The notes under the pieces were generated by a model. The model saw nothing but the letters and a program-made list of their open reading frames with translations, was not told the DNA's origin and did no database searches. The translations under genes were made by a program, and so were the position numbers. From assembly GCA_001822095.1 (NCBI GenBank), contig MHPP01000014.1:1662-65661 (forward strand): a DNA stretch of 64,000 nucleotides, in the 5' to 3' direction. Shown piece by piece: positions 3,875-56,232 of the stretch. Origin of the DNA: Candidatus Staskawiczbacteria bacterium RIFOXYC1_FULL_38_18. GTDB taxonomy: Bacteria; Patescibacteriota; Minisyncoccia; Minisyncoccales; Staskawiczbacteraceae. Position 1 is the first letter of the stretch. Each line of letters begins with the position of its first letter.

Positions 3875-3878
3875 TACT

Positions 3879-8129: not shown

Positions 8130-9482
8130 TTAGTTTTCATTAGCATACTGACCTTTATCTAAATTTTTAAAACTTACTCTTTGCTTGTCAAAGAATAAAT
8201 CAACATATCCGGTAGCTCCATTTCTGTGTTTTTCAATTAGAATTTTTGCCATTCCCGGGTTTAGGCTGTTTTCATTATAGGCGTCTTCGCGGTAAATAAA
8301 CATAACCACATCAGCGTCTTGTTCAATTGCGCCAGATTCCCTTAAGTCTGACAATCTTGGAATTTGCGGAACGCGTGACTCAACAGCGCGGGATAATTGC
8401 GACAAAACCAAAACCGGCACGTTTAACTCCTTTGCCAAAATTTTTAAAGCCCTTGAGTTTTCGGAAACCTGCTGGACGGGCGAGGCGTATTTATTCATTG
8501 GCTGCATTAATTGCAAATAATCAATTACCAGTAAGGACAACCCTTTGTTTGCCTGCAGTCTGCGCGCCATTGCCCTCATTTGCAAAATATTTACAGAGCC
8601 GGCGTCATCAATATAAATAGGGGCTTCTGATAAAATTCCCATTGCATGCTGGATTCTTGAGTAGTCATCGTCCTTCAGATGCCCCGTCCTTAAATGCCAC
8701 GAATCAATGTTTGCCACGCTGGAAATCATCCTGTCGGCCAGCTGGTCTTTTGACATTTCTAAAGAAAACAATCCAACCGGCTGGTTTGTGCCAATAGCAA
8801 CATTTCTAGCAATATCCAAAGCCAGAGACGACTTGCCCATTGCCGGCCTTGCGGCTAAAATTATCAGGTCGGACTTTTGCAAACCCGCCAGCATATTGTC
8901 CAAATCCTTAAATCCTGTTGGGATTCCGCGCAAACCTCCGGACTGCTTTGAGAGCATGTCAAGCCTCTCAAATGTTTCGGGCAAGATGTCCTTTATGGGG
9001 GTGAAAGTTTGTGTTAATGCCCGTTGCCCAATTCCAAAAATTGTTTTTTCTGCCCTGTCAATTAAAACATCAACCTCTTCCTGTTCGTCGTCAAAAGCCG
9101 ATAAGCCAATTTCTTCAGAAGCTGAAATTAAGTCGCGTAAAATCTTTTTTTGGCGGACAATTTTTGCGTAATTTGAAACGTGAGTGGCTGTCGGTACGGT
9201 ATTTATAAGTGTTGTTAAATATGCCGAGCCTCCGGTTTCCTCCAGTCTTGTTTTTTCTTTTAATCTGGCGGAAACAGACAAAATATCAATTGGGTCGGAT
9301 CGTTCGTACAAATCAAACATTGCCTGGTAAATATCCTGATGTATGCCCTTATAAAAATCTTCTGCTTTTATAAAATCAACAATTTTTACAATAGCCTCCT
9401 TATCCAACATTAAGCAACCCAGCAAGCATTGTTCTGCTTCGGTATTTTGAGGGGGAAGTTTTACCGGCATTTCGTTGACCAT
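8130..9482 (-). CDS. dnaB: Replicative DNA helicase DnaB
   Basis: A Walker A motif (GARPAMGKSS) and DnaB-family blocks (DYLQLM, SQLSRAVE) are present. The length is 450 aa. No intein is present. Confidence 0.9.
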   Translation of the reverse strand: MVNEMPVKLPPQNTEAEQCLLGCLMLDKEAIVKIVDFIKAEDFYKGIHQDIYQAMFDLYERSDPIDILSVSARLKEKTRLEETGGSAYLTTLINTVPTATHVSNYAKIVRQKKILRDLISASEEIGLSAFDDEQEEVDVLIDRAEKTIFGIGQRALTQTFTPIKDILPETFERLDMLSKQSGGLRGIPTGFKDLDNMLAGLQKSDLIILAARPAMGKSSLALDIARNVAIGTNQPVGLFSLEMSKDQLADRMISSVANIDSWHLRTGHLKDDDYSRIQHAMGILSEAPIYIDDAGSVNILQMRAMARRLQANKGLSLLVIDYLQLMQPMNKYASPVQQVSENSRALKILAKELNVPVLVLSQLSRAVESRVPQIPRLSDLRESGAIEQDADVVMFIYREDAYNENSLNPGMAKILIEKHRNGATGYVDLFFDKQRVSFKNLDKGQYANEN

Positions 9483-9523
9483 ATTTCGTTAGTTTAGCAA
9501 AACCGAGAAAACAGAGCAAGGGC

Positions 9524-9552
9524 TTGACAATAAGATAGTATTATGATAGCAT
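9524..9552 (+). promoter_or_regulatory. sigma70-type promoter with extended upstream motif gcaagggcTTGACA
   Basis: TTGACA-17-TAGCAT. The 14-bp block gcaagggcttgaca is identical to the promoter at 10820-10856. Confidence 0.55.
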
Positions 9553-9686
9553 AATTTTAGTACGTTGATTGTGGTCGGACATCGGCTTTTTCGGGCTTTA
9601 GGGTAAAAATGGACAGATATAAATTTAACCAGCGACGTTATGTTCTGGTTCTGTCCCCCGTGTCCCTTTTCCCGAGGAGGTGTGCG

Positions 9687-9944
9687 ATGAGTTCTGACCG
9701 AACGCTGGTTGGCAGTGGATTCGACCTTTTCTTGGCCGGACTGGCTTGCGGAGGGATCTCCGACGTCCAAGTCTGTGCAAGGGAAGAAACGATCCATGAT
9801 GGATGCTATCCCGGTTGCGGAGACGGCAGCTGTTGCAGCCAATTGAGGATTGCCACCTTTAGGACCTCGTCTGGAAAGATTATGGTTCTGGAGGAATACC
9901 TCGACGAGGACAACAAGGTTCAACTGAGCTTTTACCCTCTTTGA
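9687..9944 (+). CDS. Small Cys-rich protein of unknown function, encoded in a GC-rich island
   Basis: A strong SD (GAGGAGGTG) lies 4 nt before the ATG. Third-position G/C bias runs through an 85-aa ORF (MSSDRTLVGSGFDLFLAGLACGG...CYPGCGDGSCCSQ...). A promoter lies upstream and a strong terminator downstream. Confidence 0.45.
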   Translation: MSSDRTLVGSGFDLFLAGLACGGISDVQVCAREETIHDGCYPGCGDGSCCSQLRIATFRTSSGKIMVLEEYLDEDNKVQLSFYPL

Positions 9945-10108
9945 GAGCAATTTTCAGCCAGCACAAAAAGAGCAACCCACTCTATAAAATGGGCAGTAAT
10001 TCTTCGGGGAAGTGCCGAAGCGCTGGAGACGGCGGACACATCTAAGGGAGATTAGGTTCTCCTTTTGTTTCACAAAATTTATTTTGCACTGAACTAGTCG
10101 TAATATTC

Positions 10109-10141
10109 AGACCAATTCGCGCGAATTGGTCTATTAATTTT
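10109..10141 (+). terminator. Rho-independent terminator (12-bp perfect stem)
   Basis: agaccaattcgc/gcgaattggtct is followed by a U-rich tract. Confidence 0.75.
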
Positions 10142-10170
10142 AAAGTATAAAAATAAGGTTACTAACAAAA

Positions 10171-10440
10171 TTACTGACAAAAAAGTTTAATGGCACGTTT
10201 TATATCGGTCGGCGCGTTTTTGTTTAAGCCATAAAATACATGTCCTTTTTTTCCGTTACTTTCCAAAAAATTTAGGTTGTGTAAAATTATTAAATGTTTT
10301 GATGTTGATTTTACGGCGATTTCTAATTCTTCGGCTATTTTTGTCACGCTCAAATTCGTTCCGCCAGAAAGCATTTTAATTATTTTAAGACGATTAATAT
10401 TCGCCATTGCTTTAAAAATATTAACCCATCGCTTATTCAT
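10171..10440 (-). CDS. ArsR/SmtB-family HTH transcriptional regulator
   Basis: The winged HTH signature NRLKIIKML...LSVTKIAEELEIAVKSTSKHL is present in an 89-aa protein. Confidence 0.7.
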   Translation of the reverse strand: MNKRWVNIFKAMANINRLKIIKMLSGGTNLSVTKIAEELEIAVKSTSKHLIILHNLNFLESNGKKGHVFYGLNKNAPTDIKRAIKLFCQ

Positions 10441-10450
10441 GTTTTATAAT

Positions 10451-10804
10451 TTAGCCTTTTGATAATAAAATAATTGCGACAAAAGCGAAAATAATTCCAA
10501 CAATACCTGTGAGGCTTAATTTTTCGTTGAAAAGCAAAACGCCAATTAAAATTGTGGTCAGCAGGCTAAAAACCGACCACAGGGTTCCAACAATTGAGAG
10601 CTGATTTTTTTGTAATATTGCGGGAAGCCATGCAAGCACACCGGCGGAGTAGGCGATTAAGATATAAATTACGTAAATAAATTTTGGGCTTAACGCAAAC
10701 CTTTTTGAGAGAAATTCACCAACTGCAAAAAATATTGCGGAAATAATAAGCCAAATAATGTAATTTATTGATGAAAAATTCATATTATTACTTAATTTTA
10801 GCAA
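10451..10804 (-). CDS. Small multidrug-resistance / DMT-superfamily (EamA-like) 4-TM transporter
   Basis: Four hydrophobic helices are present with a conserved membrane-embedded Glu (AVGEFLSKR). It is co-directional with, and adjacent to, the ArsR gene. Confidence 0.5.
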   Translation of the reverse strand: MLKLSNNMNFSSINYIIWLIISAIFFAVGEFLSKRFALSPKFIYVIYILIAYSAGVLAWLPAILQKNQLSIVGTLWSVFSLLTTILIGVLLFNEKLSLTGIVGIIFAFVAIILLSKG

Positions 10805-10827
10805 GTCCTATAAATCCCCGCAAGGGC

Positions 10828-10856
10828 TTGACACGAACACATAATAGTGCTATAAT
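10828..10856 (+). promoter_or_regulatory. Consensus sigma70 promoter TTGACA-17-TATAAT with gcaagggc upstream block
   Basis: A perfect -35/-10 with 17-nt spacer. It shares gcaagggcttgaca with the 9524 promoter. Confidence 0.7.
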
Positions 10857-10952
10857 AAATTATAGGCTAAATTAGCCTTTGCACATCAAAAAACACCGCG
10901 ACGTAGCGGTGCAAACACTAGTTTTAACTTTTTTTTAGAAGGGTCATTACCA

Positions 10953-11858
10953 ATGGCTTCCGCTACGATTGCCCACACCGACGTCTTCGCTATTCGCGAG
11001 TTCGTGGACACGGAGATGATGCACGCGTCCGACACACGTTTGGTCGATTTTTACCTCGCCCACGCGGAGGTGATTGAGGTGCTGGCCGAGGAGGGCGATG
11101 CTGACGCTCGGGCGTTCATCAAGACGGCCGAGCGGGCGCAGGATCGGCTCAACGAAGCCGCACAGGCCGAAGGGGTTAAGGAGCGACGTCAGCGCGAGAA
11201 CCGCCAAAAGTTGGCGGTGGTGCTGGAAGAAAACGGGTACACCGAGGCGTCGGCCATCATCAGCTTGCTCGGGGAGATTGTCGCCAACAAGGTGGCAGTT
11301 CCTGGGGCAAGGCAAACGCTCGGCGAAGCTCTGACGGCTGGTGGCGGAGGAATTTGGACTCGCGCCGGCTGGGCTGTCTATTACAAGACGCTTCGACCGA
11401 TTGCCGAGGCCGTCGAGATAGAGAGCGACCAGTCCGCGCAGGCTGAGCAAGACGCTCGGAATGCCCAGGAGGCGGAACAGAAGTCCGCCACCGAAGAAAA
11501 GGCACTCTTCCTTCTCGGGTTCTTGCTCCGGGCCCTTTCGGCGGTCAGCAATGACTCGCTGGCAAATGACGGCATCCGGGGTGCAGAAATTGCCCTGGAA
11601 CGATCGAAGCCAGCCAGGGAGTGGAGCTGGTGGTTGCTCTCCGCAGTGGATCGGCTTATTGCCAGGGGCGAGCTCGTCCCCTGGGACGAGCAGAGCCAAA
11701 AGGCCGAGGGATTCATTGCTCGACTTCAGAGTGAAGTTGAGAAGGGGATTAATCTGCACCGCGCCGCCAATAATCAGCGCAAGCTGGAAAAGCAAGCTCG
11801 GCAGGCTGCTAATCGTGCCTCGCGCAATGGCTCCTGCAAGAGCGGAAAGAAAAAATAG
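10953..11858 (+). CDS. Hypothetical Ala/Glu-rich helical protein encoded by a GC-rich (foreign-looking) gene
   Basis: The 301-aa ORF has clear high-GC codon usage (GAG/GCC/CTG/CGG, GC3 dominated) inside an AT-rich genome. A promoter lies upstream and a terminator downstream. There is no recognisable domain. Confidence 0.5.
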   Translation: MASATIAHTDVFAIREFVDTEMMHASDTRLVDFYLAHAEVIEVLAEEGDADARAFIKTAERAQDRLNEAAQAEGVKERRQRENRQKLAVVLEENGYTEASAIISLLGEIVANKVAVPGARQTLGEALTAGGGGIWTRAGWAVYYKTLRPIAEAVEIESDQSAQAEQDARNAQEAEQKSATEEKALFLLGFLLRALSAVSNDSLANDGIRGAEIALERSKPAREWSWWLLSAVDRLIARGELVPWDEQSQKAEGFIARLQSEVEKGINLHRAANNQRKLEKQARQAANRASRNGSCKSGKKK

Positions 11859-11881
11859 CGGAGACCCGTTCTCCGCCAGTC

Positions 11882-11925
11882 CCTCCTTCGCGAATTAACT
11901 TTCGCGGGGGAGGGAATTTTTTTAT
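11882..11925 (+). terminator. Rho-independent terminator, likely bidirectional (shared with convergent cysS)
   Basis: The GC-rich hairpin ccctccttcgcg...cgcgggggaggg is followed by TTTTTTT. Confidence 0.6.
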
Positions 11926-13316
11926 ATTTTCTTAATAGTAGCGCCGAATTTTGTGTCCTCAATCATATAGCCCTGTTTTTCAAGTTCCTTGCGAATTTCG
12001 TCGGATTTTTGCCAGTTTTGATTTCTTCTAGCTGTTTCTCTTTCCTTCAAAAGTTTTTTAATTTTAGCGGGGACTGTCAGACTTATTTTTTTAAAATCAA
12101 TAATCCCAAAAATTTTATTTATTTCCTCAAAAAACTTATAGATTTTGGTTGATTCTTTTTTGGAGATTTTTTCCTCATCTAAGAGCTGGTTTGCTTTTTT
12201 AATAAATTCAAACATAACCGCAAAGGCTTTTGGGGTGTTAAAATCATCGTCAAGCTCTTTATAGAAATTTACTTTAAAATTCTTAATCAGGTTTTTTATT
12301 TTTTTTGCTCCCCTTATTGTTTTTACTAATTTAATTCTTCGCAGAAACTCTTCAATTTTGGAGACAGCAGACTTAACTTCAATCATTGCGGATTCGGAAT
12401 AATCCATTGGCGAAGACCATAAATTTTTAGAAACATAAAATCTCAAATAATTTGCAGGGCATCTTTTTAAGAAATCACTTATGGTAATAAAATTTCCTGA
12501 AGACTTGGACATTTTTTGTCCGCCCACAGTTAAAAACCCCACATGCATCCAATATTTTACCAGCGGGCTCTTGCCTGAAATAGCCTCCATTTGGCTTATC
12601 TCCGCTTCGTGGTGGGGGAATATTAAGTCTCTGGCGCCTCCATGGACATCATATTGCGGGCCAAAAAACCTCTCTGTTATAGCGGTGTCCTCAATGTGCC
12701 AGCCTGGGCGCCCTTGACCAAGGGAAGAAGCCCAGCTTGGTTCTAATCCTTCCTGCTTAAACTTCCACAAACAAAAATCGCCCCGGTTTCTTTTATTTTT
12801 GCTGTAATCAATTCGCGAAACGGCGTCTTCAGCGGCCAAAGCCGTACGTCCGGAAAGTTTACCATATTTTTTAAATTTTGAAATATCAAAGTAAATTCCG
12901 TCCTCGGCAATTTCATAGGCAAAACCTTTTTCTTGAAGCCTTTTTATTTGACTTATTATTTCCTTAATATAGCTTGTAGCCTTGGCATATTTTGAAACGC
13001 TTGTAATTCCAAGATTTTTCATATCTTTTAAATATTCATTTTCAAAAGCCACTGCCAGATCCTTTGGACTAACGCCCCTTTCTCGCGAACGCGCAATTAT
13101 CTTGTCATCCAAATCTGTTACGTTTTGCAGATAAAAAACCTTAAAGCCAATATGTTTTAAATATTTTACAAAAATATCAAAAACAATATAATTTCTGGCG
13201 TGCCCCAAATGAGAATAGTCGTAAACCGTCGGGCCGCAGACGAACAGATTTATTTTTTTACCGCCAACAGGCTTTATTAGGTCTTTTTTTCCGGTTAAAG
13301 TATTAAATATTTTCAT
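11922..13316 (-). CDS. cysS: Cysteinyl-tRNA synthetase
   Basis: HIGH motif (HLGHARNY) and KMSKS motif, with CysRS-specific blocks. Confidence 0.9.
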   Translation of the reverse strand: MKIFNTLTGKKDLIKPVGGKKINLFVCGPTVYDYSHLGHARNYIVFDIFVKYLKHIGFKVFYLQNVTDLDDKIIARSRERGVSPKDLAVAFENEYLKDMKNLGITSVSKYAKATSYIKEIISQIKRLQEKGFAYEIAEDGIYFDISKFKKYGKLSGRTALAAEDAVSRIDYSKNKRNRGDFCLWKFKQEGLEPSWASSLGQGRPGWHIEDTAITERFFGPQYDVHGGARDLIFPHHEAEISQMEAISGKSPLVKYWMHVGFLTVGGQKMSKSSGNFITISDFLKRCPANYLRFYVSKNLWSSPMDYSESAMIEVKSAVSKIEEFLRRIKLVKTIRGAKKIKNLIKNFKVNFYKELDDDFNTPKAFAVMFEFIKKANQLLDEEKISKKESTKIYKFFEEINKIFGIIDFKKISLTVPAKIKKLLKERETARRNQNWQKSDEIRKELEKQGYMIEDTKFGATIKKI

Positions 13317-14713: not shown

Positions 14714-15025
14714 TTGCGATACTATTATTCCAAAAAAAATTGGAATGACACTAAGAAAATGGAGGACAAAGATTTAATAAAAATTTTAAAAGCTGTGGCA
14801 AATGAAAATCGTTTTATAATTTTAAAATGTTTGTGTAAAAGCAAAGAGTTATCGGTGGGGGATTTAGCCGAGATGACCAAATCGCCGTTTAGAAGCGTTT
14901 CGAGCGATATATCTGTTTTGAGAAAGGCTAATTTAGTCCAAACCAGAAATCACTGCTCTAATCGTCTTTATTCAATTAATAACTCAAGTTTCCTAAAAGG
15001 GTTATTCCAATATTTTCTGGAATAG
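14714..15025 (+). CDS. ArsR/SmtB-family HTH regulator (start probably Met at 14759)
   Basis: The winged HTH signature NRFIILKCL...LSVGDLAEMTKSPFRSVSSDISVLRKANLV is present. Confidence 0.6.
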   Translation: MRYYYSKKNWNDTKKMEDKDLIKILKAVANENRFIILKCLCKSKELSVGDLAEMTKSPFRSVSSDISVLRKANLVQTRNHCSNRLYSINNSSFLKGLFQYFLE

Positions 15026-16178: not shown

Positions 16179-17133
16179 AAAAATTATTGTTGTGATGGCA
16201 ATGGCCGGTTTTTTATTGTTTTGCGCGCCCCATGCGGAAAGTTTGCGCGGAACACTGGACAAAAAATTAGAAAAAAATTATGTGCGGATTATGTTTGCGG
16301 GGGATTTGATGTTTGATAGAGGAATTAGATATTATGCGGAAAAAAACGGAGGAAACGACTATATTTTCGAAAAAGTTTCAGACCTGCTAAAACAAAACGA
16401 TTTAAATGTTGTAAACCTAGAGGGACCCATAACAAACAATAAATCCGTAAGCTCGGGAACTGCTCCCGGGAGTGAAAATAATTATAAATTTACTTTTGAC
16501 AAAGGTATTGCCAAAACCTTGTTTGACCAAAATATAAAAATTGTAAATTTGGGAAATAATCACATTGAAAATTTTGGTTATGCCGGGCTTAACCAAACTA
16601 AAAAATATTTGGACGAGGCAGGGGTAGATTATTTCGGCGCCCCTGATTATCCGCGTAGCATTTCAACGGAAATTAACGGAATAAAAATAACTTTTGTAAA
16701 CTATAATGAATTTTCTGCGTTGCAAGAAAACGAAGCGCCAGAAACAATAAATGAAATTCAAAAAACCAAAGGGTTTTCCGACCTAATAATTATTTATTGC
16801 CACTGGGGAGTTGAATACGCGCCTGAGCCAACAGAGGAACAAAAACAGCTGGCTCGGGAATTTATAGACAGCGGAGCAGATTTGGTTATTGGCTCGCATC
16901 CTCACGTAATTCAAACAACAGAAACATATAAAAACAAGAGAATTTATTATTCTCTTGGAAACTTTATTTTTGACCAGTATTTTGACGAAGGTGTGCGCAA
17001 GGGATTGGGAGTTGTGGTAAAAATAGACAAAACAACAAGAGGGATGGGTTTTGCGGAAAAAAACTTTTATTTGCAAACCGGCGGGCAGACCATAGTTTTA
17101 TCTCCTGCGCTTTTTCCTGAAGAGCAAAAATAA
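16159..17133 (+). CDS. CapA/PGA_cap family metallophosphatase-like capsule biosynthesis protein
   Basis: A signal peptide is present. Motifs GDLMFDRG, GNNHIENFG and HWGVEY...GSHPHV are typical of CapA. The start overlaps the dnaX 3' end by 20 nt. Confidence 0.65.
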   Translation: MLQMPNKKIIVVMAMAGFLLFCAPHAESLRGTLDKKLEKNYVRIMFAGDLMFDRGIRYYAEKNGGNDYIFEKVSDLLKQNDLNVVNLEGPITNNKSVSSGTAPGSENNYKFTFDKGIAKTLFDQNIKIVNLGNNHIENFGYAGLNQTKKYLDEAGVDYFGAPDYPRSISTEINGIKITFVNYNEFSALQENEAPETINEIQKTKGFSDLIIIYCHWGVEYAPEPTEEQKQLAREFIDSGADLVIGSHPHVIQTTETYKNKRIYYSLGNFIFDQYFDEGVRKGLGVVVKIDKTTRGMGFAEKNFYLQTGGQTIVLSPALFPEEQK

Positions 17134-18027
17134 AACCAATAACGCGCCAGGTATGCCAAATATATAATAAATTGAAGCCTCGCTGTTTAGAAGCCTCGCT
17201 AAGGCGTCCATAAGAGAGGCGGTTGTTTTTGATGGGTCTATGGGAAACTCATCCTTTAAATCATCTGTGCCATCTTTGTCTGTGTCTGCATCTGCCGGGC
17301 TTGTTCCGGAAATAATTTCCTCTTGGTCTTTTATTCCATCATTGTCGGTGTCTGCTGATAATGGATTTGTTCCATAGTCAAACTCTTCCTCAAAATCAAA
17401 TATTCCGTCGTTATCATCGTCTAAATCTTTAACATCCCCAAGCCCATCTTTGTCGGTGTCTTGCCATTCGGTTTTATCTTTTGGAAAAGCGTCGGCACCG
17501 TCTTTTGCATGGTCGCCGTCTGTATCGGCAAGCAGGGGATTTGTGCCGGAGCTTATTTCCTGGTCGTCACTCAAGCCATCGTTGTCGTCATCCGCATCCT
17601 TCTGGTTTCCGGACCCGTCCTTGTCGGTGTCTGAATCAACAAAATACTCCTTTTTCAGCGCGGTGTTGTTTTCCAGATTTTCGTCGCTCGGGTTTTCGGA
17701 AATAATTTTTGCTGTTATGCTGTGCGAACCCGCGCTAATCTTGTAATCAATAAAAACGTCGTCATAGTTATTTGTTCGCACAGAAATTGGTTGCGGATCT
17801 GATATTTCCTTACCGTTGCTTAAAAAAACAACATGCCCGTAAACATCTGTGTCGCCGGTATTTAAAACCCGCGCGAACATTCTTATTATTTCGCCCTCCA
17901 TGGCGTTTTCCTTTGAAAACGTAATGTCATTTTCGGTTATTGACAAATCTGTTTTTGCAAGAGAAACGTCCGCGGAAAACAAAATAACTAACGAGAAAAC
18001 AACAATAAAAAGGAGAAGTCTTTTCAT
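17098..18027 (-). CDS. Secreted Asp-rich calcium-binding protein with thrombospondin type-3-like repeats and C-terminal TM anchor
   Basis: A signal peptide is present. Repeated DTDKDGxxD / DDDNDGxxD motifs are present. The C-terminal hydrophobic helix ends in KKRRR. Confidence 0.55.
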   Translation of the reverse strand: MKRLLLFIVVFSLVILFSADVSLAKTDLSITENDITFSKENAMEGEIIRMFARVLNTGDTDVYGHVVFLSNGKEISDPQPISVRTNNYDDVFIDYKISAGSHSITAKIISENPSDENLENNTALKKEYFVDSDTDKDGSGNQKDADDDNDGLSDDQEISSGTNPLLADTDGDHAKDGADAFPKDKTEWQDTDKDGLGDVKDLDDDNDGIFDFEEEFDYGTNPLSADTDNDGIKDQEEIISGTSPADADTDKDGTDDLKDEFPIDPSKTTASLMDALARLLNSEASIYYIFGIPGALLVLFLLFRKKRRR

Positions 18028-35586: not shown

Positions 35587-35709
35587 TGTTTTTGGGGTTG
35601 GTAAGAGTCGGATATTTTGGAGTTTCACGACTTGCAAAAAATATCAATCCGTTGTAATGTTTTAATATCGTAGTTTCGTTTCAGGGCTCTTTCACAAGGG
35701 AGACAGAAA

Positions 35710-36039
35710 GTGGACGGAGCAATTCTTGACCAGTTGACTGGCAAACAATACGATTTGCCTGTCTTTGAAAACGATTTGGTGAGGGTTGAATCTGCTGGGA
35801 GAGTTATCCGAGTCGGTATCAAAGACCGAGGGATGGCTTTCTCTTGGTGGGAACCGACTCATCCCTTCTCTGGTAACCGCAGTCTACCGCAACAGCGAGG
35901 TTGGGATTTTCAAGTGGAAACCCCCAACGAGAATGAGACCAGAGCGATTTTTTCAAAGGGAAGCGTGAGGCACGTTCTCACGCTCACCTGCACAAACCCC
36001 AACGTGAAGCCCAAGACCATTGAAGTGAAGTGGGATTAA
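35710..36039 (+). CDS. Hypothetical protein (moderately GC-rich gene)
   Basis: A GTG start has a good SD (AAGGGAGA). The 109-aa ORF is GC-richer than its surroundings. Confidence 0.4.
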   Translation: MDGAILDQLTGKQYDLPVFENDLVRVESAGRVIRVGIKDRGMAFSWWEPTHPFSGNRSLPQQRGWDFQVETPNENETRAIFSKGSVRHVLTLTCTNPNVKPKTIEVKWD

Positions 36040-36065
36040 GTTTTCAATTTTGAAAGGAAACGGCA

Positions 36066-36338
36066 ATGACCACCGCAAGCGACATTAAGAACGTTGCACA
36101 AAGTACCGAAGAAAATCCTTCTCGACTTGGATGCTTCATCTTGAAACCTCCCGTGAGGCTCAAGTATAAGCCAAGTGGGAAAATCGTCACCGCTTCTATG
36201 GTGGATATCAGCGGGAAGTATCCCAACCACGTCCACACGGAAGAGATGGGATACTGGTATCCAGCCGATAAATTTGAAATCGGCACAGAAGTTATAACCG
36301 TGGAGCCAGCCCCGATTGAGGACTTGCTTAACTCGTAG
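36066..36338 (+). CDS. Hypothetical protein (moderately GC-rich gene)
   Basis: An ATG with an SD (AAAGGAAA). The 90-aa ORF is co-directional with the previous gene. Confidence 0.4.
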   Translation: MTTASDIKNVAQSTEENPSRLGCFILKPPVRLKYKPSGKIVTASMVDISGKYPNHVHTEEMGYWYPADKFEIGTEVITVEPAPIEDLLNS

Positions 36339-36463
36339 TTAAGTAGGTCCAACCCGAGATAACGGAAATCGAAATCATAGCCCAATGACGGAAACGTTAG
36401 CAGGCTCTTTTTTTACAAACGGATAAGCTCGCATTTTCATTTATTTTTTGGTAGGATAAAAAT

Positions 36464-40135: not shown

Positions 40136-40392
40136 AAGTAAAAATCCATTTAGCCCTTTTAGCAAGGGTTTTTTGGTTATATTGATTTTTAGCAATTTTG
40201 GCGGTAAGATTAAAATAATTTAATATTGGTTGCCTAACCCTTAAAATTTATTTTAAGGTATGGCAAAAAGTCGTTGTGCATATCAAACCCGTCATTCGGG
40301 GGTGTGCACAACGCTATACAGGGAAACTTGTATATGGGTCGCAAGACTCACCCCAGTGGCGGGTTTTATGTTGTGCCACAATTATTAAAAAT

Positions 40393-40713
40393 ATGGAAAA
40401 TCAAACAGAAGAAACAAAAAGTAGTTTTTTTGAACATTGGAAGCGTTCAGTTTTAGTAATTGTAGGATTTGTAGCTATCTGCATATTTATTGGAAGCCTG
40501 CACTTATCCTCTGAACAAAGCGGGGCATTGGTGATAGCAATACCGTTATGTTTATTTTTATACTTCTTACCAGCATATATCGCTTTCAAAAAAGAAAAGA
40601 AAAATAAGGTTGCTATTTTTGCACTAAATTTGTTTTTAGGATGGACACTTATTGGCTGGATTGTTGCACTGGTTTGGAGCTTAACTTATGAAGAAAGAAA
40701 AAATATAAATTGA
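40393..40713 (+). CDS. Superinfection immunity (Imm_superinfect-like) membrane protein
   Basis: YFLPAYIAFKKEKKNKVAIFALNLFLGWTLIGWIVALVWSL matches the phage superinfection-immunity family pattern. The ORF track starts it at 40276; Met 40393 is preferred. Confidence 0.55.
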   Translation: MENQTEETKSSFFEHWKRSVLVIVGFVAICIFIGSLHLSSEQSGALVIAIPLCLFLYFLPAYIAFKKEKKNKVAIFALNLFLGWTLIGWIVALVWSLTYEERKNIN

Positions 40714-41165: not shown

Positions 41166-41193
41166 TTGACACGGCTCGTTGAAGTGCTATAAT
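41166..41193 (+). promoter_or_regulatory. sigma70 promoter TTGACA-16-TATAAT
   Basis: aatagTTGACAcggctcgttgaagtgcTATAATtaaaa. Confidence 0.65.
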
Positions 41194-41711: not shown

Positions 41712-42524
41712 ATGACAAACACAAACCAAAGCGTAGAAATTGAGGATGGTAGTAATGATAAAAAGTATTTTACAATAATACCAAATTATATTTTAAATCA
41801 TTCCACGCCATACGACAGAGATGTTTATATTCAAATGAAAAGAATAGCTGGTGAACACGGAACTTGTTGGACATCCCAAAAAACATTAGCTAAACAATGT
41901 GGAGTTAGCATCAATCGATTAAAAAAATCATTGAGTTATCTTTTAGATAACAAATGGATAAAATATATGGGAACTAAAAAGGTTGGAACTAAAGGCGGGG
42001 GGCAGGAGGTCAACGAATACAAAATAGTTGATTTGTGGAAAATGAACGGTGAATTTTATGAAATCAAGGGAGTGTCGCCAGACGATATACCTGCAAAACA
42101 AGGGGTATCACTAATAGAACCAAGGGAATGTCACAAAAAAATCAGAGGGGTGTCGCTGGATGATAACAAAGAAGAACCCATTAATAATAAACCCATTAAA
42201 GAAGAGGCGGGCGATAAGGAAAATCTTATTAAAGAAGTGGTGGAGAAATGGAATTCTTATGCCAAACCGTTAGAGGGATATAGAAATAAAACACTGAATA
42301 AATTTGGTCTCCCGAAATGTAAAGGTATAACAGCGGACATTAGGGTCGTTTTTTACAGGCTTATGAAGGAAAAAAGAACAAAGGAGGCAATGTTGGAATC
42401 TATAAAAAATTATATGAATGAAGTAATTAATAGAAGCCCTGATAATGACTATGCGATTCACAGATTTTCGTTTTATGAGTTTTTTAATCAGGATAATGGT
42501 TTTGTAAAATTTAGTAACAAATAA
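41712..42524 (+). CDS. Phage/plasmid replication-initiation-like HTH protein (DnaD/HTH_36-like)
   Basis: FTIIPNYILNH...DRDVYIQMKRIAGEHGTCWTSQKTLAKQCGVSINRLKKSLSYLLDNKWI is an N-terminal wHTH typical of replisome organiser/Rep proteins. Confidence 0.45.
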   Translation: MTNTNQSVEIEDGSNDKKYFTIIPNYILNHSTPYDRDVYIQMKRIAGEHGTCWTSQKTLAKQCGVSINRLKKSLSYLLDNKWIKYMGTKKVGTKGGGQEVNEYKIVDLWKMNGEFYEIKGVSPDDIPAKQGVSLIEPRECHKKIRGVSLDDNKEEPINNKPIKEEAGDKENLIKEVVEKWNSYAKPLEGYRNKTLNKFGLPKCKGITADIRVVFYRLMKEKRTKEAMLESIKNYMNEVINRSPDNDYAIHRFSFYEFFNQDNGFVKFSNK

Positions 42525-42531
42525 AAAATTT

Positions 42532-43776
42532 ATGACAGATTTAACTTGGCACACAGAAAAACGAAAAGTTAATGACTTACTCCCATTTAAGGGTAACGCA
42601 AGAAAAGAAGATGAAAAACAATCATTTGATTTAAGAAAGAGTTTTGAGAAGTTTGATTTAGTAGAAATACCCGCAATAAATACGGACAATACTACTTTGG
42701 CGGGAAACAGAAGATTAAGAATGCTTCAATTACTTGGGAGAGGAGAAGAAATGATTGACGTTAGGGTTCCGAACAGAGCTTTAACAACGGAGGAGGTGAA
42801 GGAATATAATTTAAGAAGTAATAAAAATACGGCTTCTTGGGATATTGGCTTGCTTGCAAATTTTGACGAAGGTTTGTTGAAGGAGGTCGGCTGGGAAGGT
42901 TGGGAGTTGGATGAAATATTTAGTCCAAATGTTGAAGATGATGATTCATTTGATGTTGAATCAGAGACTAAAAAAATAACAGAGCCAAAAGTTAAGTTTG
43001 GCGATTTGTATGAAGTAAACGGGCACAGAATTTTATGCGGAAATAGTCAGGACCCAGAACGGGTCGAAAAATTAATGGATAGAAAGGTCGCAAAATTAAT
43101 TTTTACAAGCCCGCCATATAATATGGCTGGGAAGATGTATAAAAATTATTCTGACAATTTGAAAAGCGAGGAATATATAAAATTTAACCTTGATGTCCTC
43201 CAAAATTGTAAAAGGTTTTTGAAAGGATTTTGTTTTTGGAACATTTCTTATAACAAAAACGCCAGGTCTGAATTTATTGAAATAATCTATAAGATTATTA
43301 AGGATACTGGCTTGCAGTTTGTAGAGCTAATTGTCTGGGACAAGGGGCACGCCCTCCCAATAGTTTCAAAACAAGGGCTGACGAGAAGGTATGAGGACGT
43401 GTTATTGGTTGGCGATAACGAAAGTGTACAAAGTGATTTGGAAATATATTTTTGTGGGGCGAATGACAAAAAAGTATTTTTCAACAAAAAAAACCAAAAA
43501 GGAATCACAAATTATTGGAGAGTTAATACAAACCAAGCTCAACAGAAAAATCATTTGGCGTGCTTTCCAGTAGCACTCCCAATCAAAGGAATTGAATTGA
43601 TGACACAAAGAGGCGATATTGTATTGGACCCATTTTTGGGAAGCGGGACCACTTTAATAGCATCGGAAAGAACTGGTAGAAAATGTTTTGCTTGTGAATT
43701 GGACCCTTTGTATGTTGAGTTGGCTCTAAATCGTTTTAAATATTTGTTTGGCAAAGAGGCGATAAAAATATGTTAG
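42532..43776 (+). CDS. ParB-like nuclease N-terminal domain fused to DNA N6-adenine/N4-cytosine methyltransferase
   Basis: A ParB-N/Srx fold occupies the N-terminus. The motif IV SPPY (IFTSPPYNM) and a C-terminal AdoMet motif DPFLGSGTT are present. This is a typical phage orphan MTase architecture. Confidence 0.7.
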   Translation: MTDLTWHTEKRKVNDLLPFKGNARKEDEKQSFDLRKSFEKFDLVEIPAINTDNTTLAGNRRLRMLQLLGRGEEMIDVRVPNRALTTEEVKEYNLRSNKNTASWDIGLLANFDEGLLKEVGWEGWELDEIFSPNVEDDDSFDVESETKKITEPKVKFGDLYEVNGHRILCGNSQDPERVEKLMDRKVAKLIFTSPPYNMAGKMYKNYSDNLKSEEYIKFNLDVLQNCKRFLKGFCFWNISYNKNARSEFIEIIYKIIKDTGLQFVELIVWDKGHALPIVSKQGLTRRYEDVLLVGDNESVQSDLEIYFCGANDKKVFFNKKNQKGITNYWRVNTNQAQQKNHLACFPVALPIKGIELMTQRGDIVLDPFLGSGTTLIASERTGRKCFACELDPLYVELALNRFKYLFGKEAIKIC

Positions 43777-44234
43777 AAGATTCAAACGAATTAAATCAGG
43801 AACCTAATAAGATTGAGGCAGAAAATCTCCATAGCAGTGGTGGTTTTGTGGATAAGCCCGAGAGAGATGAGCAGGGCAGATTTGTGAATGGACATCCTAA
43901 ATTGGGCGGAACGAGAATGGGCTATCTCTCTCTTCGAAAGGTTTTACGTGAAATGTTACAGGAAGCCAAAGAGGTAACCATTAACGACCGAAAAGAACAA
44001 AGGACAAGAATGGAAATTTTATTAGAAGTTCTGTTTAAGAAGGCTGTTGGCGGAGACCTGGGGGCAATTCGTGAAATATTTGACAGAATTGAGGGAAAAC
44101 CAAAACCATTAGGCGTAAATGATATGCCTGACGAAATTAATCTGACACAAGTTTTTCAGCAAATATATAATCAAAGTGAGGAAGCTAGAAGGCAGAAGGA
44201 GGAAGAGAATAATTTAGAAAATAAAATTAAATAA
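43770..44234 (+). CDS. Hypothetical protein
   Basis: A 154-aa ORF whose start overlaps the MTase stop. Confidence 0.4.
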   Translation: MLEDSNELNQEPNKIEAENLHSSGGFVDKPERDEQGRFVNGHPKLGGTRMGYLSLRKVLREMLQEAKEVTINDRKEQRTRMEILLEVLFKKAVGGDLGAIREIFDRIEGKPKPLGVNDMPDEINLTQVFQQIYNQSEEARRQKEEENNLENKIK

Positions 44235-44245
44235 GATTTTTAAAA

Positions 44246-44449
44246 ATGAAAAGGAATGAATTAAAAACTAATTATACGTCAAAAAAGGATGAAGGAAGAA
44301 GAAACTTCGCCCTTAATTATATCGCTAACCATATTAAAAAGAATTTACAGAACCTATCTAAATTTAAGTGGGGAGGTGGGGGATTTGCTTGTTTTGTGAA
44401 TTTGGAGCGACCCCACAGCGAACAAGAGGGTCAAGACAAAAGTAAATAA
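44246..44449 (+). CDS. Hypothetical small protein
   Basis: A 67-aa ORF. Confidence 0.3.
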   Translation: MKRNELKTNYTSKKDEGRRNFALNYIANHIKKNLQNLSKFKWGGGGFACFVNLERPHSEQEGQDKSK

Positions 44450-44609
44450 ACTACCCTGGGTAAAATGAGTAGATTTTGAGGGTAATAAGGCAAAACAAAC
44501 AATCAAGTGATTATTCAGTCCTGTCCGTAGAGAGAGGCTTTGACGCAAGGGTTGTCCAGCGTCATCATCACGCCACTGGTAAAGTAAATTAAAAAGCCAG
44601 TGTAAAAAT

Positions 44610-45155
44610 ATGGACAACAAAAAATGTGCTTTGTATCTACGGGTCAGCAAAAGCGACCAGACAACATTGAATCAAGAATTGGAATTGAAAGGTTATTGTC
44701 AGCGGAACGATTGGGATATTTTCAATGTTTACAAAGACGAAGGCGTGTCTGGCTCAAAGACATCAAGACCAGAGTTAGATAAAATGTTAAAAGATGTGCG
44801 GGACAAAAAGTTTGAAGCGGTGATTGTTTGGAAATTTGACCGCTTAGGCAGGTCAACGGCTCATCTTTTACAGGTTTTAGAAGAAATGAAGAATAAAGGA
44901 ATCAGATTGATAGCAACAAGCCAAAGCATAGACACAGACACCGCAATGGGTAAATTCTTTTTTACAATCTTATCTGGGTTTGCTGAAATGGAACGAGGAA
45001 TAATAACAGAAAGAATAAATTTGGGTTTAGCAAGGGTAAAAAAACAAGGGAAAAAGTTGGGTCGCCCATCAGGCTCAAAAGATAAAAGTTATCGTAAAAA
45101 GTCGGGATATTTGCTTCGCTGGCAAAATCAACAAAATCTAAAAGTTTCAATTTAA
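44610..45155 (+). CDS. Small serine recombinase (resolvase/invertase family)
   Basis: The catalytic Ser (ALYLRVSKSDQ) is in a resolvase N-domain, with FDRLGRS and a C-terminal HTH. Confidence 0.8.
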   Translation: MDNKKCALYLRVSKSDQTTLNQELELKGYCQRNDWDIFNVYKDEGVSGSKTSRPELDKMLKDVRDKKFEAVIVWKFDRLGRSTAHLLQVLEEMKNKGIRLIATSQSIDTDTAMGKFFFTILSGFAEMERGIITERINLGLARVKKQGKKLGRPSGSKDKSYRKKSGYLLRWQNQQNLKVSI

Positions 45156-45159
45156 AAAT

Positions 45160-46776
45160 ATGAATCTAAAATCAGCAATCTATGGCAGGGTAAGTCCGAG
45201 TTCTAAAAAATCCATAGAAAACGAGACTATTGAAGACCAAACCGAAAAAAACAAAAAATTCATTATAAGAAATAATGATATTTTGGTTGATATTTATCCA
45301 GACGACCAATATTCTGGTCATTTGGAAAGAAGACCCAGTTTTGATAGATTATTAGAAGATGCAAAATTGGGTCGAATTGAATCTGTTTATATTACAAAAA
45401 TTGATAGACTTGCGAGGGACCCTGGGACGCAGATTTATTGTCTTAAGGAGTTAAAAAAATTAAATCTAAAAGTTTTTCTTGGTGGAGAACTTCTTGATGA
45501 CACACCCGAAGGAAAACTCTTGCTTGGTATACTCGGGCAATTTAGTGAATACGAGGCATCACAAATTGTCATAAGAACCACAAACGGAAGGTGGCGAAAA
45601 GCCAGAGCTGGAAAGATTATCGCCTCCGTTACTCGTTATGGTTTTAAGTTAGAATGGGTTAAAAGGGGAGATGAAAATATTAAAATAGTTTCGATAGATG
45701 AAAATGAATCTAAGGTAGTACTTTATATGTTTGATTTGATATTCAAATGCAGAAGCTGTCATCAGGTAGCTAAAAAATTATTTGAAGAGGGAATTAAAAC
45801 GAGAAATGGAAAAAATTGGGACGCAACCACGGTAAAAGGAGTTTTGACAGATAAAACTTATACAGGAATTTGGCACTACGGCAAAAGATTAGCAGTAGAA
45901 CCAAAGAAAAAGAGAAAGACATATTACAGGTGCCTTAATTCAAGCACAATGGCTAATCCGAACAAGGATGATATCATTTATTACAAAATTCCTGCAATAG
46001 TTAGTAAAGAAAGGTTTGACGCAGTCCAAGAGCTTTTAAAAGAAATTAGTAAAAGAAGAGTTGAAACAAAAAGATTTTATCTTTTAAACGGTATTTTAAG
46101 ATGTGCGAAATGCGGAGCTAAAATGTATGGGAGGAGTTTGTATGATAAAAGATACAATAGATATTATACATATTATTATTGTTCGACCAATTCAAAACCT
46201 TTTCACAAGGCTCCTTGCCCCACGAATCAAGTTAGAAGTAAGGATGTTGAAAAAACGGTTTGGGAGGCGGTGCAAAATATCTTTCATAATCCTGAAAATA
46301 TTTTGTCTTGCAACGAAGCATATTTGAAAGAAAACTATAATCAGGATAAAATAGCGGATGAGAAAAGGTTGCTACTTGCAGAACTAGAAAAAATAAGGCA
46401 AAATAAGATAAAGCAATTAGAGCTTTATGAGATAGACGATGTTATCGATAAGGTCGTTATTAAAGAAAGACTAAATTTTTTATCTGGTAAGGAGCAGTAC
46501 CTAAAAAAGAAATTAGAAGTTATTGATAAATCTGCAACAAGTTCAGAGATGAACAAACATTTAGTTGAGAGCGTAAAGGAATTTGGTAAGCTAATGGAGA
46601 TTGATTTGGAAAAAATGACCGATATTGAGAAAAAAGAATTGCTGATGGGAATGCTGGTATATGTGGAGTTTGACCCAGATAATATGGGCGTTAATGTTGT
46701 TGGAAGTATAGAAGGAATAGACACCGCAAATAAACTTGGGAAAAAGCTTGAGGTATTGAAATTATTAAGGACTTAA
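45160..46776 (+). CDS. Large serine recombinase (phage-type integrase)
   Basis: A resolvase N-domain (AIYGRVSPSSKKS, DRLARDP), a recombinase domain, a zinc ribbon (CAKCGAKMYG...C) and a coiled coil make up the 538-aa protein. Confidence 0.8.
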   Translation: MNLKSAIYGRVSPSSKKSIENETIEDQTEKNKKFIIRNNDILVDIYPDDQYSGHLERRPSFDRLLEDAKLGRIESVYITKIDRLARDPGTQIYCLKELKKLNLKVFLGGELLDDTPEGKLLLGILGQFSEYEASQIVIRTTNGRWRKARAGKIIASVTRYGFKLEWVKRGDENIKIVSIDENESKVVLYMFDLIFKCRSCHQVAKKLFEEGIKTRNGKNWDATTVKGVLTDKTYTGIWHYGKRLAVEPKKKRKTYYRCLNSSTMANPNKDDIIYYKIPAIVSKERFDAVQELLKEISKRRVETKRFYLLNGILRCAKCGAKMYGRSLYDKRYNRYYTYYYCSTNSKPFHKAPCPTNQVRSKDVEKTVWEAVQNIFHNPENILSCNEAYLKENYNQDKIADEKRLLLAELEKIRQNKIKQLELYEIDDVIDKVVIKERLNFLSGKEQYLKKKLEVIDKSATSSEMNKHLVESVKEFGKLMEIDLEKMTDIEKKELLMGMLVYVEFDPDNMGVNVVGSIEGIDTANKLGKKLEVLKLLRT

Positions 46777-50746: not shown

Positions 50747-50774
50747 TATCCTTGACATATTTTAATTGTATGAT
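50747..50774 (+). promoter_or_regulatory. sigma70 promoter TTGACA-16-TAGAAT for the ABC exporter
   Basis: ccTTGACAtattttaattgtatgaTAGAATtt. Confidence 0.55.
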
Positions 50775-50854
50775 AGAATTTAGTTAGTCCTGACGGTGAT
50801 AATGTGTCATCGTCCTGAACCAAAACAGAATAACGAGAGAAGGGAAGCTAGCAA

Positions 50855-52597: not shown

Positions 52598-52607
52598 TAA
52601 TCGCCAT

Positions 52608-52641
52608 GTCCCGGCACAGCAATGTGTCCGGGACTTTTTTA
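52608..52641 (+). terminator. Rho-independent terminator
   Basis: gtcccggcacagcaatgtgtccgggac is followed by TTTTTT. Confidence 0.75.
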
Positions 52642-52778
52642 TTGCCTTGCCTCGCCGGAGCTTTTAGCGAAGGCGGGTGCGACAAGTGATTAAATAATAT
52701 ATTTTGCAGAACATATATTTCGCGACATTTGTTTGACTTTTATAAAAAATAGAGCCAAGCTTAAATAATTGAAAAGTT

Positions 52779-56084: not shown

Positions 56085-56232
56085 AATTGTCCCTCTCGCA
56101 ATAATAGTGACAACGAACTGCTAGATGCAAACTCACTACGGGCAAGTTCGCATAAAAATATTAGTTTAATATATAAAAATAATCTGCCATTGTCAATTTA
56201 AAAAAAGAGATTATATTTTTATTGTGCGACGT

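Follow-up and report, generated by a model that had tools for sequence, protein, structure and literature searches.

Prophage morons are autonomous promoter-gene-terminator units (Cumby et al. 2012, PMC3594210). We compared these and other described systems with a locus in a 64,000-nucleotide stretch of Candidatus Staskawiczbacteria bacterium RIFOXYC1_FULL_38_18 (assembly GCA_001822095.1, contig MHPP01000014.1, positions 1,662 to 65,661; hereafter, the window), where two genes of atypical composition, ORF85 and ORF301, lie between dnaB and cysS. Our favored reading, to which we give a probability of roughly 55%, is that they are two independent monocistronic accessory cassettes, each made up of promoter, leader, gene and terminator, in the ancestral cysS-dnaB junction of this Candidatus Staskawiczbacteria lineage. 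ORF301 would be the older resident, belonging to a lineage-specific family driven by a TG-extended consensus promoter, with a GC-rich terminator and, in most relatives, a 5' stem-loop. Later, a 1.3-kb insertion carrying ORF85 and an ArsR/small-transporter pair would have landed immediately after the -35 hexamer of the ORF301 promoter and duplicated about 50 nucleotides (nt) of the dnaB-side control region, such that ORF85 is now under copy A, while ORF301 has remained under copy B. The two genes would probably share promoter strength and any upstream regulation, yet would not form one acquired module. The ORF301 mRNA would be long-lived and abundant, selection for that RNA property would keep the family GC-rich, and the product would be a soluble helical protein with a basic tail. 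The ORF85 leader would occlude the Shine-Dalgarno (SD) sequence and the AUG, probably gating translation.

Like morons, ORF85 and ORF301 are each a single gene with its own sigma-70-type promoter (10/12 and 12/12 sequence matches, respectively) and factor-independent terminator. Both are deviant in composition, occupy a site between genes that are adjacent in relatives, and are read opposite to the surrounding genes. Unlike morons, they are not accompanied by a prophage: the neighbors are recR, dnaB, cysS and a CDP-alcohol phosphatidyltransferase gene, and PHROG, INPHARED and IMG/VR held no match. Moreover, ORF301 has been kept at one chromosomal site across lineages saturated at synonymous positions, which is not the behavior of a recent add-on. 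The units are moron-like chromosomal cassettes rather than members of the prophage-moron class.

Acquired islets with atypical GC content and codon usage reportedly drift towards the composition of their host, a concept known as amelioration and attributed to Lawrence and Ochman. ORF301 resembles such islets in its deviant GC, GC at third codon positions (GC3) and codon choice, in its insertion within a conserved junction, and in its orphan protein. In contrast to them, amelioration was not seen in any of the six ORF301 family members (GC3 0.65-0.81), and no donor lineage was found. A second point of comparison is offered by coding sequences under selection for extreme mRNA secondary structure, a known phenomenon (Gebert et al. 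2019, PMC6544989); greater structure in a coding sequence can lengthen the functional half-life of the mRNA (Mauger et al. 2019, PMC6883848). The native codon arrangement of ORF301 likewise folds far more stably than shuffled arrangements. It differs in that the property is common to a whole fast-evolving family with a GC excess of 25-30 points over the host. By analogy, the pairing in ORF301 may also bear on mRNA half-life.

Two protein-coding units on an AT-rich background

The window has a GC content of 38.8% (composition count over 64 kb), in an AT-rich Patescibacteria genome. Against this background, ORF301 has 60% GC (0.66, 0.45 and 0.70 at codon positions 1, 2 and 3), and the enrichment of ORF85 is only moderate at 52% (0.52, 0.47 and 0.58). 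Genes flanking the two range from 31% to 42% GC. The remaining open reading frames (ORFs) of the window have GC3 of 0.22-0.44, except for four other GC-elevated islet ORFs at 0.49-0.58. The original prediction, made from the letters of the window, had singled out two GC-rich segments with high-GC codons, an 85-residue Cys-rich product and a 301-residue Ala/Glu-rich helical product without recognizable domains. All of this held: GC is not uniform, ORF85 encodes 85 amino acids (aa) with 6 Cys, ORF301 encodes 301 aa (17% Ala, 11% Glu) that are predicted to be all-helical, and neither has a domain match. By exact-sequence look-up, ORF85 corresponds to OGZ84623.1 and ORF301 to OGZ84626.1, both deposited as hypothetical protein from Candidatus Staskawiczbacteria metagenome-assembled genomes (MAGs).

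The two units consist of the following predicted features. Locus L001, mentioned in the list, carries a homologue of ORF85. Labels L001 to L099 denote contigs or loci of related or same-population genomes, and P0002 to P0008 denote homologous proteins.

9524-9552, plus strand: promoter P1, preceding ORF85; TTGACA-17-TAGCAT, 10/12, with a TG-extended -10
9559-9686, plus strand: ORF85 leader of 128 nt, predicted to form a long hairpin (minimum free energy -44.6 kcal/mol, z -2.6)
9687-9944, plus strand: ORF85, an acidic protein of 85 aa with 6 Cys
9945-10072, plus strand: ORF85 3' untranslated region (UTR) and terminator, with an 8-bp hairpin (10044-10065) plus U-run; 84% identical to L001
10828-10856, plus strand: promoter P2, preceding ORF301; TTGACA-17-TATAAT, 12/12, with a TG-extended -10
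10863-10952, plus strand: ORF301 leader, with a 5'-terminal hairpin (10864-10878) followed by TTGCAC, a second hairpin (10894-10911) and the ribosome-binding site (RBS) GAAGGG
10953-11858, plus strand: ORF301, a soluble, predicted all-helical protein of 301 aa whose body is acidic and whose C-terminal tail is basic (+9)
11856-11915, no strand assigned: two adjacent hairpins, the first (11858-11878) with a minus-strand T-run as the cysS terminator, the second (11880-11915) as the plus-strand ORF301 terminator

On the minus strand, recR and dnaB (8130-9482) precede ORF85, which is followed by an ArsR-family gene and a small EamA/SMR-like transporter gene, both also on the minus strand, and then by ORF301. 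Beyond ORF301 lie cysS (11922-13316) and the CDP-alcohol phosphatidyltransferase gene, again on the minus strand. Each unit had been predicted to end in a strong intrinsic terminator, and each does. The ORF301 terminator has a 15-bp stem followed by a T-run (-40 kcal/mol, z -6.1). The 8-bp stem of ORF85, with its U-run, was seen by folding and not picked by the consensus scan. The second hairpin of the ORF301 leader reads as a terminator on the minus strand.

GC-rich islands that stand in AT-rich genomes and have strong promoters and terminators often turn out to be structured RNAs. OLE, GOLLD, ROOL, HEARO and raiA (Rfam) are such islands of 0.5-1 kb, and the present units resemble them in being GC-rich, equipped with a strong promoter and terminator, and set in an AT-rich genome. 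We therefore considered whether the two segments are structured non-coding or dual-function RNAs in which the ORFs are incidental. Besides this general precedent, the ORF301 transcript folds at z -4.5 relative to dinucleotide shuffles of its coding sequence, the UTRs of ORF85 are about as conserved as its ORF (77-88%), and the ORF85 start codon is lost through a 29-nt deletion in locus L003. However, ORF301 has strong 3-base periodicity, and its family encodes the residues of a shared motif, KPxxEWxxWxLxAxxRL, with differing synonymous codons. Between ORF85 and its 87%-identical homologue in L001, the 30 differences fall 6/4/20 at codon positions 1/2/3. Each ORF has a start codon and RBS. Searching Rfam with the whole window at the gathering score, and with 9400-12000 at E values up to 10, gave nothing credible within 9400-12000 (none better than E 0.2), and the segments differ from the listed RNAs in having no covariance-model match together with clear protein-coding evidence. 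Because of the periodicity, family and synonymous motif codons of ORF301, and the mostly third-position changes of ORF85, both are protein genes, and we regard the RNA explanation as very unlikely. A by-eye likeness of GGATTCGAC at 9715 to the 5' end of tmRNA was discarded, as ARAGORN found no tmRNA.

Reverse-strand ORFs in the GC-rich segments had been called spurious, and the family agrees: the frame antisense to ORF301 is open in only 3/6 members. The 282-aa antisense ORF was rejected as a gene because stops interrupt its frame in L005, L008 and L090; it is a by-product of GC-rich codon choice.

Separate distributions and a duplicated control region

The original prediction had joined the two GC-rich genes, their shared promoter and the intervening ArsR-SMR pair into one horizontally acquired, co-regulated module. 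Consistent with that proposal, the site in which the four genes stand is empty in the nearest relative, a block beyond chance is common to both promoters, and three other same-population assemblies have the identical arrangement. However, the genes are found apart. The ORF301 homologue P0008 sits between dnaB and cysS in L005/L006, with the same three-gene layout on the shorter contig L007, and P0005 sits between dnaB (90% identical protein) and cysS (78%) in L008. None of these loci has ORF85, ArsR or the transporter. The ORF301 homologues read away from dnaB, and L090 begins with the same promoter and upstream sequence as the ORF301 family. In L001/L002, the ORF85 homologue lies between a gene reading as thrS and a tRNA-Ser gene, on a contig without ORF301 or ArsR-SMR. 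The ORF85-ArsR-transporter block occurs at dnaB/cysS only in the window's own population (also L098 and L099). Furthermore, ArsR and SMR are AT-rich like the host (31-33% GC), and the promoter appears to be the family's resident one, duplicated rather than imported. A co-acquired, linked module is contradicted by ORF301 alone in L005/L006 and L008 and by ORF85 alone in L001/L002, and we consider it highly improbable.

Related genomes with an empty dnaB/cysS site, which the original prediction had proposed looking for, do exist. The gap is 76 nt in L010, the nearest named genome (a Staskawiczbacteria MAG, DnaB 73%), with cysS and dnaB on the same strand, and among the 25 Patescibacteria loci that have this gene order, 14 have a gap no longer than 263 nt. 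Owing to these short gaps, the cysS-dnaB adjacency appears ancestral, with an ORF301-type gene inserted in a sub-lineage.

The two promoters had been described as sharing an exact 14-bp block and a 17-nt spacer, with a perfect TTGACA-17-TATAAT at the second. Each of these details was borne out, and the identity is not due to chance. The 14-mer GCAAGGGCTTGACA has exactly two copies in the window, at 9516-9529 and 10820-10833. Allowing up to two mismatches gave 3 matches against 0.36 expected, a number reached in 0/100 shuffles; a near-match at 51511 falls within the ABC-transporter coding sequence and was disregarded. High promoter quality does not by itself set P1 and P2 apart, as perfect or near-perfect consensus promoters also occur at 3878, 18321 and 41166. 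The end of the P2 spacer and its -10 are kept in L005, L008 and L090, and P2 is the putative ancestral promoter of the ORF301 family.

Likeness between the two control regions extends beyond the 14-mer. The regions and the genes that they bracket are:

9480-9529, no strand assigned: control-region copy A, from the dnaB start codon (cat, 9480-9482) to the -35 hexamer; holds the 14-mer at 9516-9529
10109-10132, no strand assigned: perfect 12+12 palindrome between the convergent ORF85 and ArsR genes
10171-10440, minus strand: ArsR-family helix-turn-helix (HTH) regulator (Pfam HTH_5, E 1.9e-8), 31% GC, within the inserted segment
10451-10804, minus strand: small EamA/SMR-like membrane protein (Pfam EamA E 1e-5 and Multi_Drug_Res E 1.3e-3, both under the gathering score), 33% GC, within the inserted segment
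10783-10833, no strand assigned: control-region copy B, from the transporter ATG (cat, 10783-10785) to the -35 hexamer; holds the 14-mer at 10820-10833

The 47 nt from the dnaB start codon to the P1 -35 are homologous to the dnaB-adjacent stretch in L005 (34/47 identical) and L090. When the 36 nt upstream of the 14-mer were aligned between copies A and B, the score was 8, which was reached by 1/5000 shuffles and 3/5000 random genomic 37-mers. The homology begins in both copies at the 'cat' of the divergent gene's start codon. Downstream of TTGACA, P1 and P2 are no more alike than promoter constraints explain. Between the copies lies a 1304-nt insert with ORF85, ArsR and the transporter. On the simplest reading, this segment was inserted directly after the -35 hexamer and about 50 nt of divergent control region were duplicated, in which case the 14-mer would be the core of the duplication that has not yet diverged. 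Hence, the idea that the shared promoter arrived with the genes gives way to duplication of the resident control region (~50 nt, copies A and B). Within the population, L098 has one substitution in the 14-mer; an apparent 40-nt deletion of the P1 -10 box in the same variant is a scaffold gap of Ns. If correct, the locus offers a clean, datable example of a resident divergent control region being duplicated and wiring a newly inserted block into an existing promoter.

In L001, at an unrelated location, the ORF85 unit is likewise surrounded by a promoter duplication. There, an 80-nt direct repeat of the promoter region (1106-1185 and 2017-2096, 88% identical) brackets a 911-nt segment, the end of the repeat coinciding with the predicted transcript start. 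Within the segment lie the ORF85 unit, a promoter-to-terminator unit of ~75 nt that is possibly a small RNA, and a tRNA-Ser(TGA) gene. The two types of cassette also have leader sequence in common. The 10-mer GTTCTGTCCC followed by CGAGGAG, in the RBS-proximal ORF85 leader, recurs in the leader of the ORF301 homologue in L008, which (L008 1215-1247 versus window 9648-9686) has a GTTCTGTCCC...TTTCGAGGAG module instead of the GAAAGGG-type RBS of other members. This suggests that ORF85-type and ORF301-type cassettes exchanged leader or promoter modules in the past.

Some minor features adjoin these control regions. Read by eye, the -10 regions of P1 (9543-9552) and P2 (10851-10864) are -10-like on the opposite strand too (TGcTATCAT and TATAAT), and the consensus scan recognized no other promoter for dnaB or the transporter gene; both regions may be bidirectional promoters that also serve these genes. 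The palindrome presumably acts as a terminator. Start candidates of the transporter are ATG 10785 and TTG 10804, and the gene is called as 110 or 117 aa in other assemblies. A second ArsR-family HTH gene (14714-15025, plus strand, HTH_5 E 9e-6) lies 3 kb from the first.

GC content and mRNA pairing in the ORF301 family

Having separated the two units, we turn to the composition of ORF301. An exhaustive phmmer search of 1.84 billion representatives defined its family as the window protein plus P0004-P0008 (E 1e-22 to 1e-5), in which KPxxEWxxWxLxAxxRL is invariant. The AF2 model of ORF301 has a pLDDT of 85, and no signal peptide or membrane segment was found. Profile searches of Pfam, NCBIfam, PHROGs, PADLOC and PDB sequences gave no match for ORF85 or ORF301; marginal matches to slr0373_blue (E 0.0065) and Drc1-Sld2 (E 0.0037), each to a single family member, were discounted. 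The back-translated family motif had 0 matches in 185,579 GTDB species genomes, and in JGI metagenomes and IMG/VR only 4 chance matches and 2 already-known loci. Single-protein scans of IMG/VR, INPHARED and PLSDB gave no match, and a profile search of a 5.8-billion-protein set had two already-known members among the matches listed. Control elements recur across the family: a hairpin stands at the same place of the leader in L008 (same stem), L090 (AGGG/CCCT) and L005 (GAGAA/TTCTC), and the CCCTCC...GGAGGG terminator stem is also present in L008, L009 and L090.

ORF301 diverges far more than its flanks. Between the window and L008, dnaB is 79% identical in nucleotides and 90% in protein, and cysS 75% and 78%, compared with ~50% and ~30-36% for ORF301, which would evolve more than 10 times faster than DnaB. 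Its composition has persisted. The GC3 of all six members contrasts with 0.24-0.35 in the AT-rich flanking genes of L005, L006 and L008. The family favors AAG, GAG and TTC and avoids TTA and AGA, opposite to native genes. Family members are only 0.20-0.44 identical among themselves at 4-fold degenerate sites, and flanking genes 0.34-0.43, i.e., both are saturated. If ORF301 has been at the site since the lineages split, a neutral foreign composition should have decayed. Translational selection was rejected as the cause of high GC3: in two window genes that we take by eye to encode ribosomal proteins L9 and L27, GC3 is ~0.40, and AAA and TTT are the favored codons, contrary to ORF301. Head-on replication conflict was not supported as the cause of fast evolution, with ORF301 on the strand of positive GC skew like most window genes.

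To quantify pairing, we permuted codons among positions of the same amino acid, leaving protein and codon usage unchanged (synonymous shuffles). The six family members gave z of -3.8 (window), -5.8, -2.8, -5.7, -8.2 and -9.9. Nine native AT-rich comparison genes ranged from -2.0 to +0.6, and 16 genes of GC-rich genomes among the fetched loci had a mean of -0.97 and a minimum of -4.0 (family versus GC-rich-genome controls, Mann-Whitney p 9e-5). On the same scale, ORF85 scored -2.4 (window) and -3.4 (L001), the ABC-transporter gene of the window -2.9 and -4.6, and its ParB-like gene -2.2. The excess is spread along the ORF301 coding sequence, with the sense strand stronger in 5/5 members tested. 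Among 63 window ORFs ranked by pairing z, ORF301 was 2nd and ORF85 4th.

A consensus promoter, 5' stem-loop, paired GC-rich coding sequence and 15-bp terminator could together yield a very stable, abundant mRNA, and the requirement for such a transcript could hold the family at high GC. We offer this as a tentative inference that is possible rather than probable. More doubtful still is the broader claim that the family gene kept a GC-rich, self-paired coding sequence at the cysS-dnaB junction beyond synonymous saturation, such that its 'foreign' composition would be a selected transcript or DNA property and not a transfer footprint.

A further alternative is plain recent transfer from higher-GC donors without amelioration and with no selection on composition, in which ORF301 alleles were imported separately into a hot spot. 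The foreign-type codon usage is as this would predict, as is the sign of common uptake of higher-GC DNA given by other GC-elevated islets (ABC transporter 50855-52597, ParB-like 54894-56084, and 35710-36338). The ORF85 unit itself looks recently moved, with 74% identity at 4-fold sites. In addition, ORF301 protein distances from the window to L008 and to L005 are similar, near 35% in both cases, and do not track those of DnaB (90% versus 76%). Yet no donor emerged: P0004-P0008 were the only relatives among the 1.84 billion representatives, and those with readable flanks stand behind the same promoter. Neither the GTDB motif scan (0/185,579) nor IMG/VR, INPHARED and PLSDB added new relatives. 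Members have the promoter, 5' hairpin and terminator stem in common, and their saturation at 4-fold sites leaves no recent exchange visible among sampled alleles. Ordinary genes of GC-rich genomes also do not have the same pairing excess. We judge recent transfer to be unlikely overall. The main rival to the mRNA-stability reading is that the gene was replaced repeatedly, at a recombination hot spot, from a GC-rich pool not yet sampled. The earlier interpretation as acquired DNA thus stands in part: both segments are coding, compositionally atypical and self-contained, but recent foreign origin is doubtful for ORF301 because the family stays GC-rich at the same site while flanking genes are saturated.

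Rapid divergence could alternatively mark ORF301 as a hypervariable conflict gene (anti-phage, anti-host or immunity-like) under frequency-dependent selection, with recombination through the dnaB and cysS flanks and GC-biased gene conversion raising its GC. Its ~50% nucleotide identity between flanks at 75-79%, a divergence that does not scale with host distance, and a strong, constitutive-looking promoter on a lineage-specific gene with no housekeeping annotation are all compatible with this view. However, the divergence is also explicable by weak constraint while synonymous sites are saturated, PADLOC and PHROGs had no match, and the protein has neither signal peptide nor membrane segment. 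In bacteria, biased gene conversion is credited with shifting GC3 by a few percent, and not from 0.3 to 0.7. A conflict gene is, in our estimation, rather improbable.

Several points weigh against the favored reading of two independent cassettes with a selected ORF301 transcript. What is said of promoters, transcription starts, terminators, mRNA stability and translation gating is prediction throughout. Both flanking genes are present in three lineages only (the window, L005/L006/L007 and L008), and with three lineages vertical descent of ORF301 is indistinguishable from repeated replacement at the same site. In L090 (1182-2247) and L009 (1018-1257), the ORF301 homologue is followed by other GC-rich orphan ORFs and not by cysS, wherefore the GC-rich islet appears larger in some lineages. 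The sense-strand advantage is slight in L008 and L090, making pairing nearly strand-symmetric and a DNA-level cause possible. Across the 63 window ORFs, the correlation of GC3 with z is weak (rho -0.29), and two ordinary genes are comparably extreme: a TSP3-repeat protein gene (17098-18027, minus strand, z -5.3), to which internal repeats may contribute, and a DNA methylase gene (42532-43776, plus strand, z -4.3). Finally, no transposase, integrase, recombinase or terminal repeat was found at the insert junctions to account for the duplication.

The orphan neighbors in L090, of 205 aa (45% GC) and 93 aa (58% GC), have no Pfam match and synonymous-shuffle z of -4.2 and -4.3.

At face value, the locus adds two more hypothetical proteins of an uncultivated bacterium, already deposited as such. 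It is ordinary in kind, with accessory orphan genes in an insertion hot spot; what is unusual is a fast-evolving family with a GC-rich, self-paired coding sequence in AT-rich genomes. Atypical GC is usually taken as a sign of recent transfer, a rule from which the ORF301 family departs by combining GC3 near 0.7, foreign-type codons and a pairing excess in genomes of ~39% GC. For Patescibacteria, it provides a testable case in which gene composition may be shaped by selection on the structure or stability of mRNA. If such selection is real, the same logic may cover other GC-rich islets, GC-based calls of transfer in such genomes would be partly wrong, and the selected property could serve exceptionally stable mRNA in ultra-small cells. 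Given its dnaB-side placement, consensus promoter and very fast protein evolution, the family, which occurs in Rifle and landfill datasets, is a reasonable metaproteomic or metatranscriptomic target.

The ORF85 unit and other features of the window

Homology between the window and L001 follows the limits of the ORF85 unit, running from promoter/transcript start to terminator. It begins around TAGTAC at 9559, near the predicted transcription start of P1, and amounts to 77% in the 5' UTR, 88% in the ORF and 84% in the 3' UTR, compared with ~50% outside. Because 4-fold sites of ORF85 are 74% identical, the whole transcription unit appears to have moved fairly recently. By eye, the terminator stem differs between the two loci and still pairs (GGGAGA/UUCUCC versus AGGCAA/UUUGCCU).

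RNA thermometers of the fourU and ROSE types are leaders that occlude the RBS. The predicted fold of the ORF85 leader is similar in that the U-rich GCUUUUUCGGG pairs with the SD (GAGGAGG) and CAUC pairs with the AUG; a further helix joins GGACAGA to UCUGUCC. The L001 leader forms the same helices, with its 33-nt indel in the apical loop, and these two sequences contain no compensatory pairs. Whereas those thermometers use a short local hairpin, the helix in the ORF85 leader is long-range and encloses a domain of ~100 nt, and the leader has no Rfam match. Translation of ORF85 is probably gated by this SD- and AUG-occluding leader, as judged from the modeled fold.

At the N-terminus of the ORF85 product is a hydrophobic helix whose last residues are LAGLAC; a 4-stranded sheet is predicted after it. 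A lipoprotein check placed the helix at residues 11-21 and LAGLAC at C21, with the -3/-2 residues (G, L) off the consensus [LVI][ASTVI][GAS]C. The hydrophobic segment contains Asp, and its best 19-residue Kyte-Doolittle window is 1.51. ORF85 may be a small Cys-rich alpha/beta protein that is exported or lipid-anchored. Loci of the smtB-smtA type pair an ArsR/SmtB repressor with an adjacent Cys-rich metallothionein, and here too a small Cys-rich gene adjoins an ArsR-family gene. The likeness is superficial: ORF85 and ArsR converge instead of diverging, no ArsR gene adjoins the L001 homologue, the 6 Cys in 85 aa lie in a predicted beta-sheet fold, and there was no metallothionein match in Pfam or NCBIfam.

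Locus L003, from another sample, matches the window at 100% except for a 29-nt deletion that takes away the ORF85 start codon (L003 803, window 9687-9715). An alternative upstream ATG reads in frame into the same C-terminal 75 residues (P0002). The deletion may be a natural variant or an assembly artefact.

Elsewhere in the window, three regions are GC-elevated. The ABC-transporter ATPase/permease gene at 50855-52597 (islet 50752-52650; 51% GC, GC3 0.58) has its own TTGACA-16-TAGAAT promoter and a terminator, a cassette-like anatomy as in ORF85 and ORF301, together with the excess pairing given above. At 35600-36400 (~50% GC), two plus-strand ORFs (35710-36039, 109 aa; 36066-36338, 90 aa) have no Pfam match and z of -2.9 and -1.3. 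Within 54894-57204 on the minus strand, a 396-aa ORF (50% GC) with a weak ParB_N match (E 0.0096) adjoins a tyrosine recombinase gene (Phage_integrase, E 4e-38). It is within this region, at ~56 kb, that cumulative GC skew reaches its maximum for the window, and a replication terminus/dif region or a mobile-element boundary may lie there. A full-length LOOT RNA (Rfam RF03000) lies at 40231-40350 on the plus strand (87 bits versus a gathering score of 46) and overlaps the start of the listed ORF 40276-40713. Following a TTGACA-16-TATAAT promoter at 41166, a mobile-element-like block on the plus strand (41712-46776) encodes an HTH_36 protein, an N6/N4 DNA methylase, a resolvase and a large serine recombinase.

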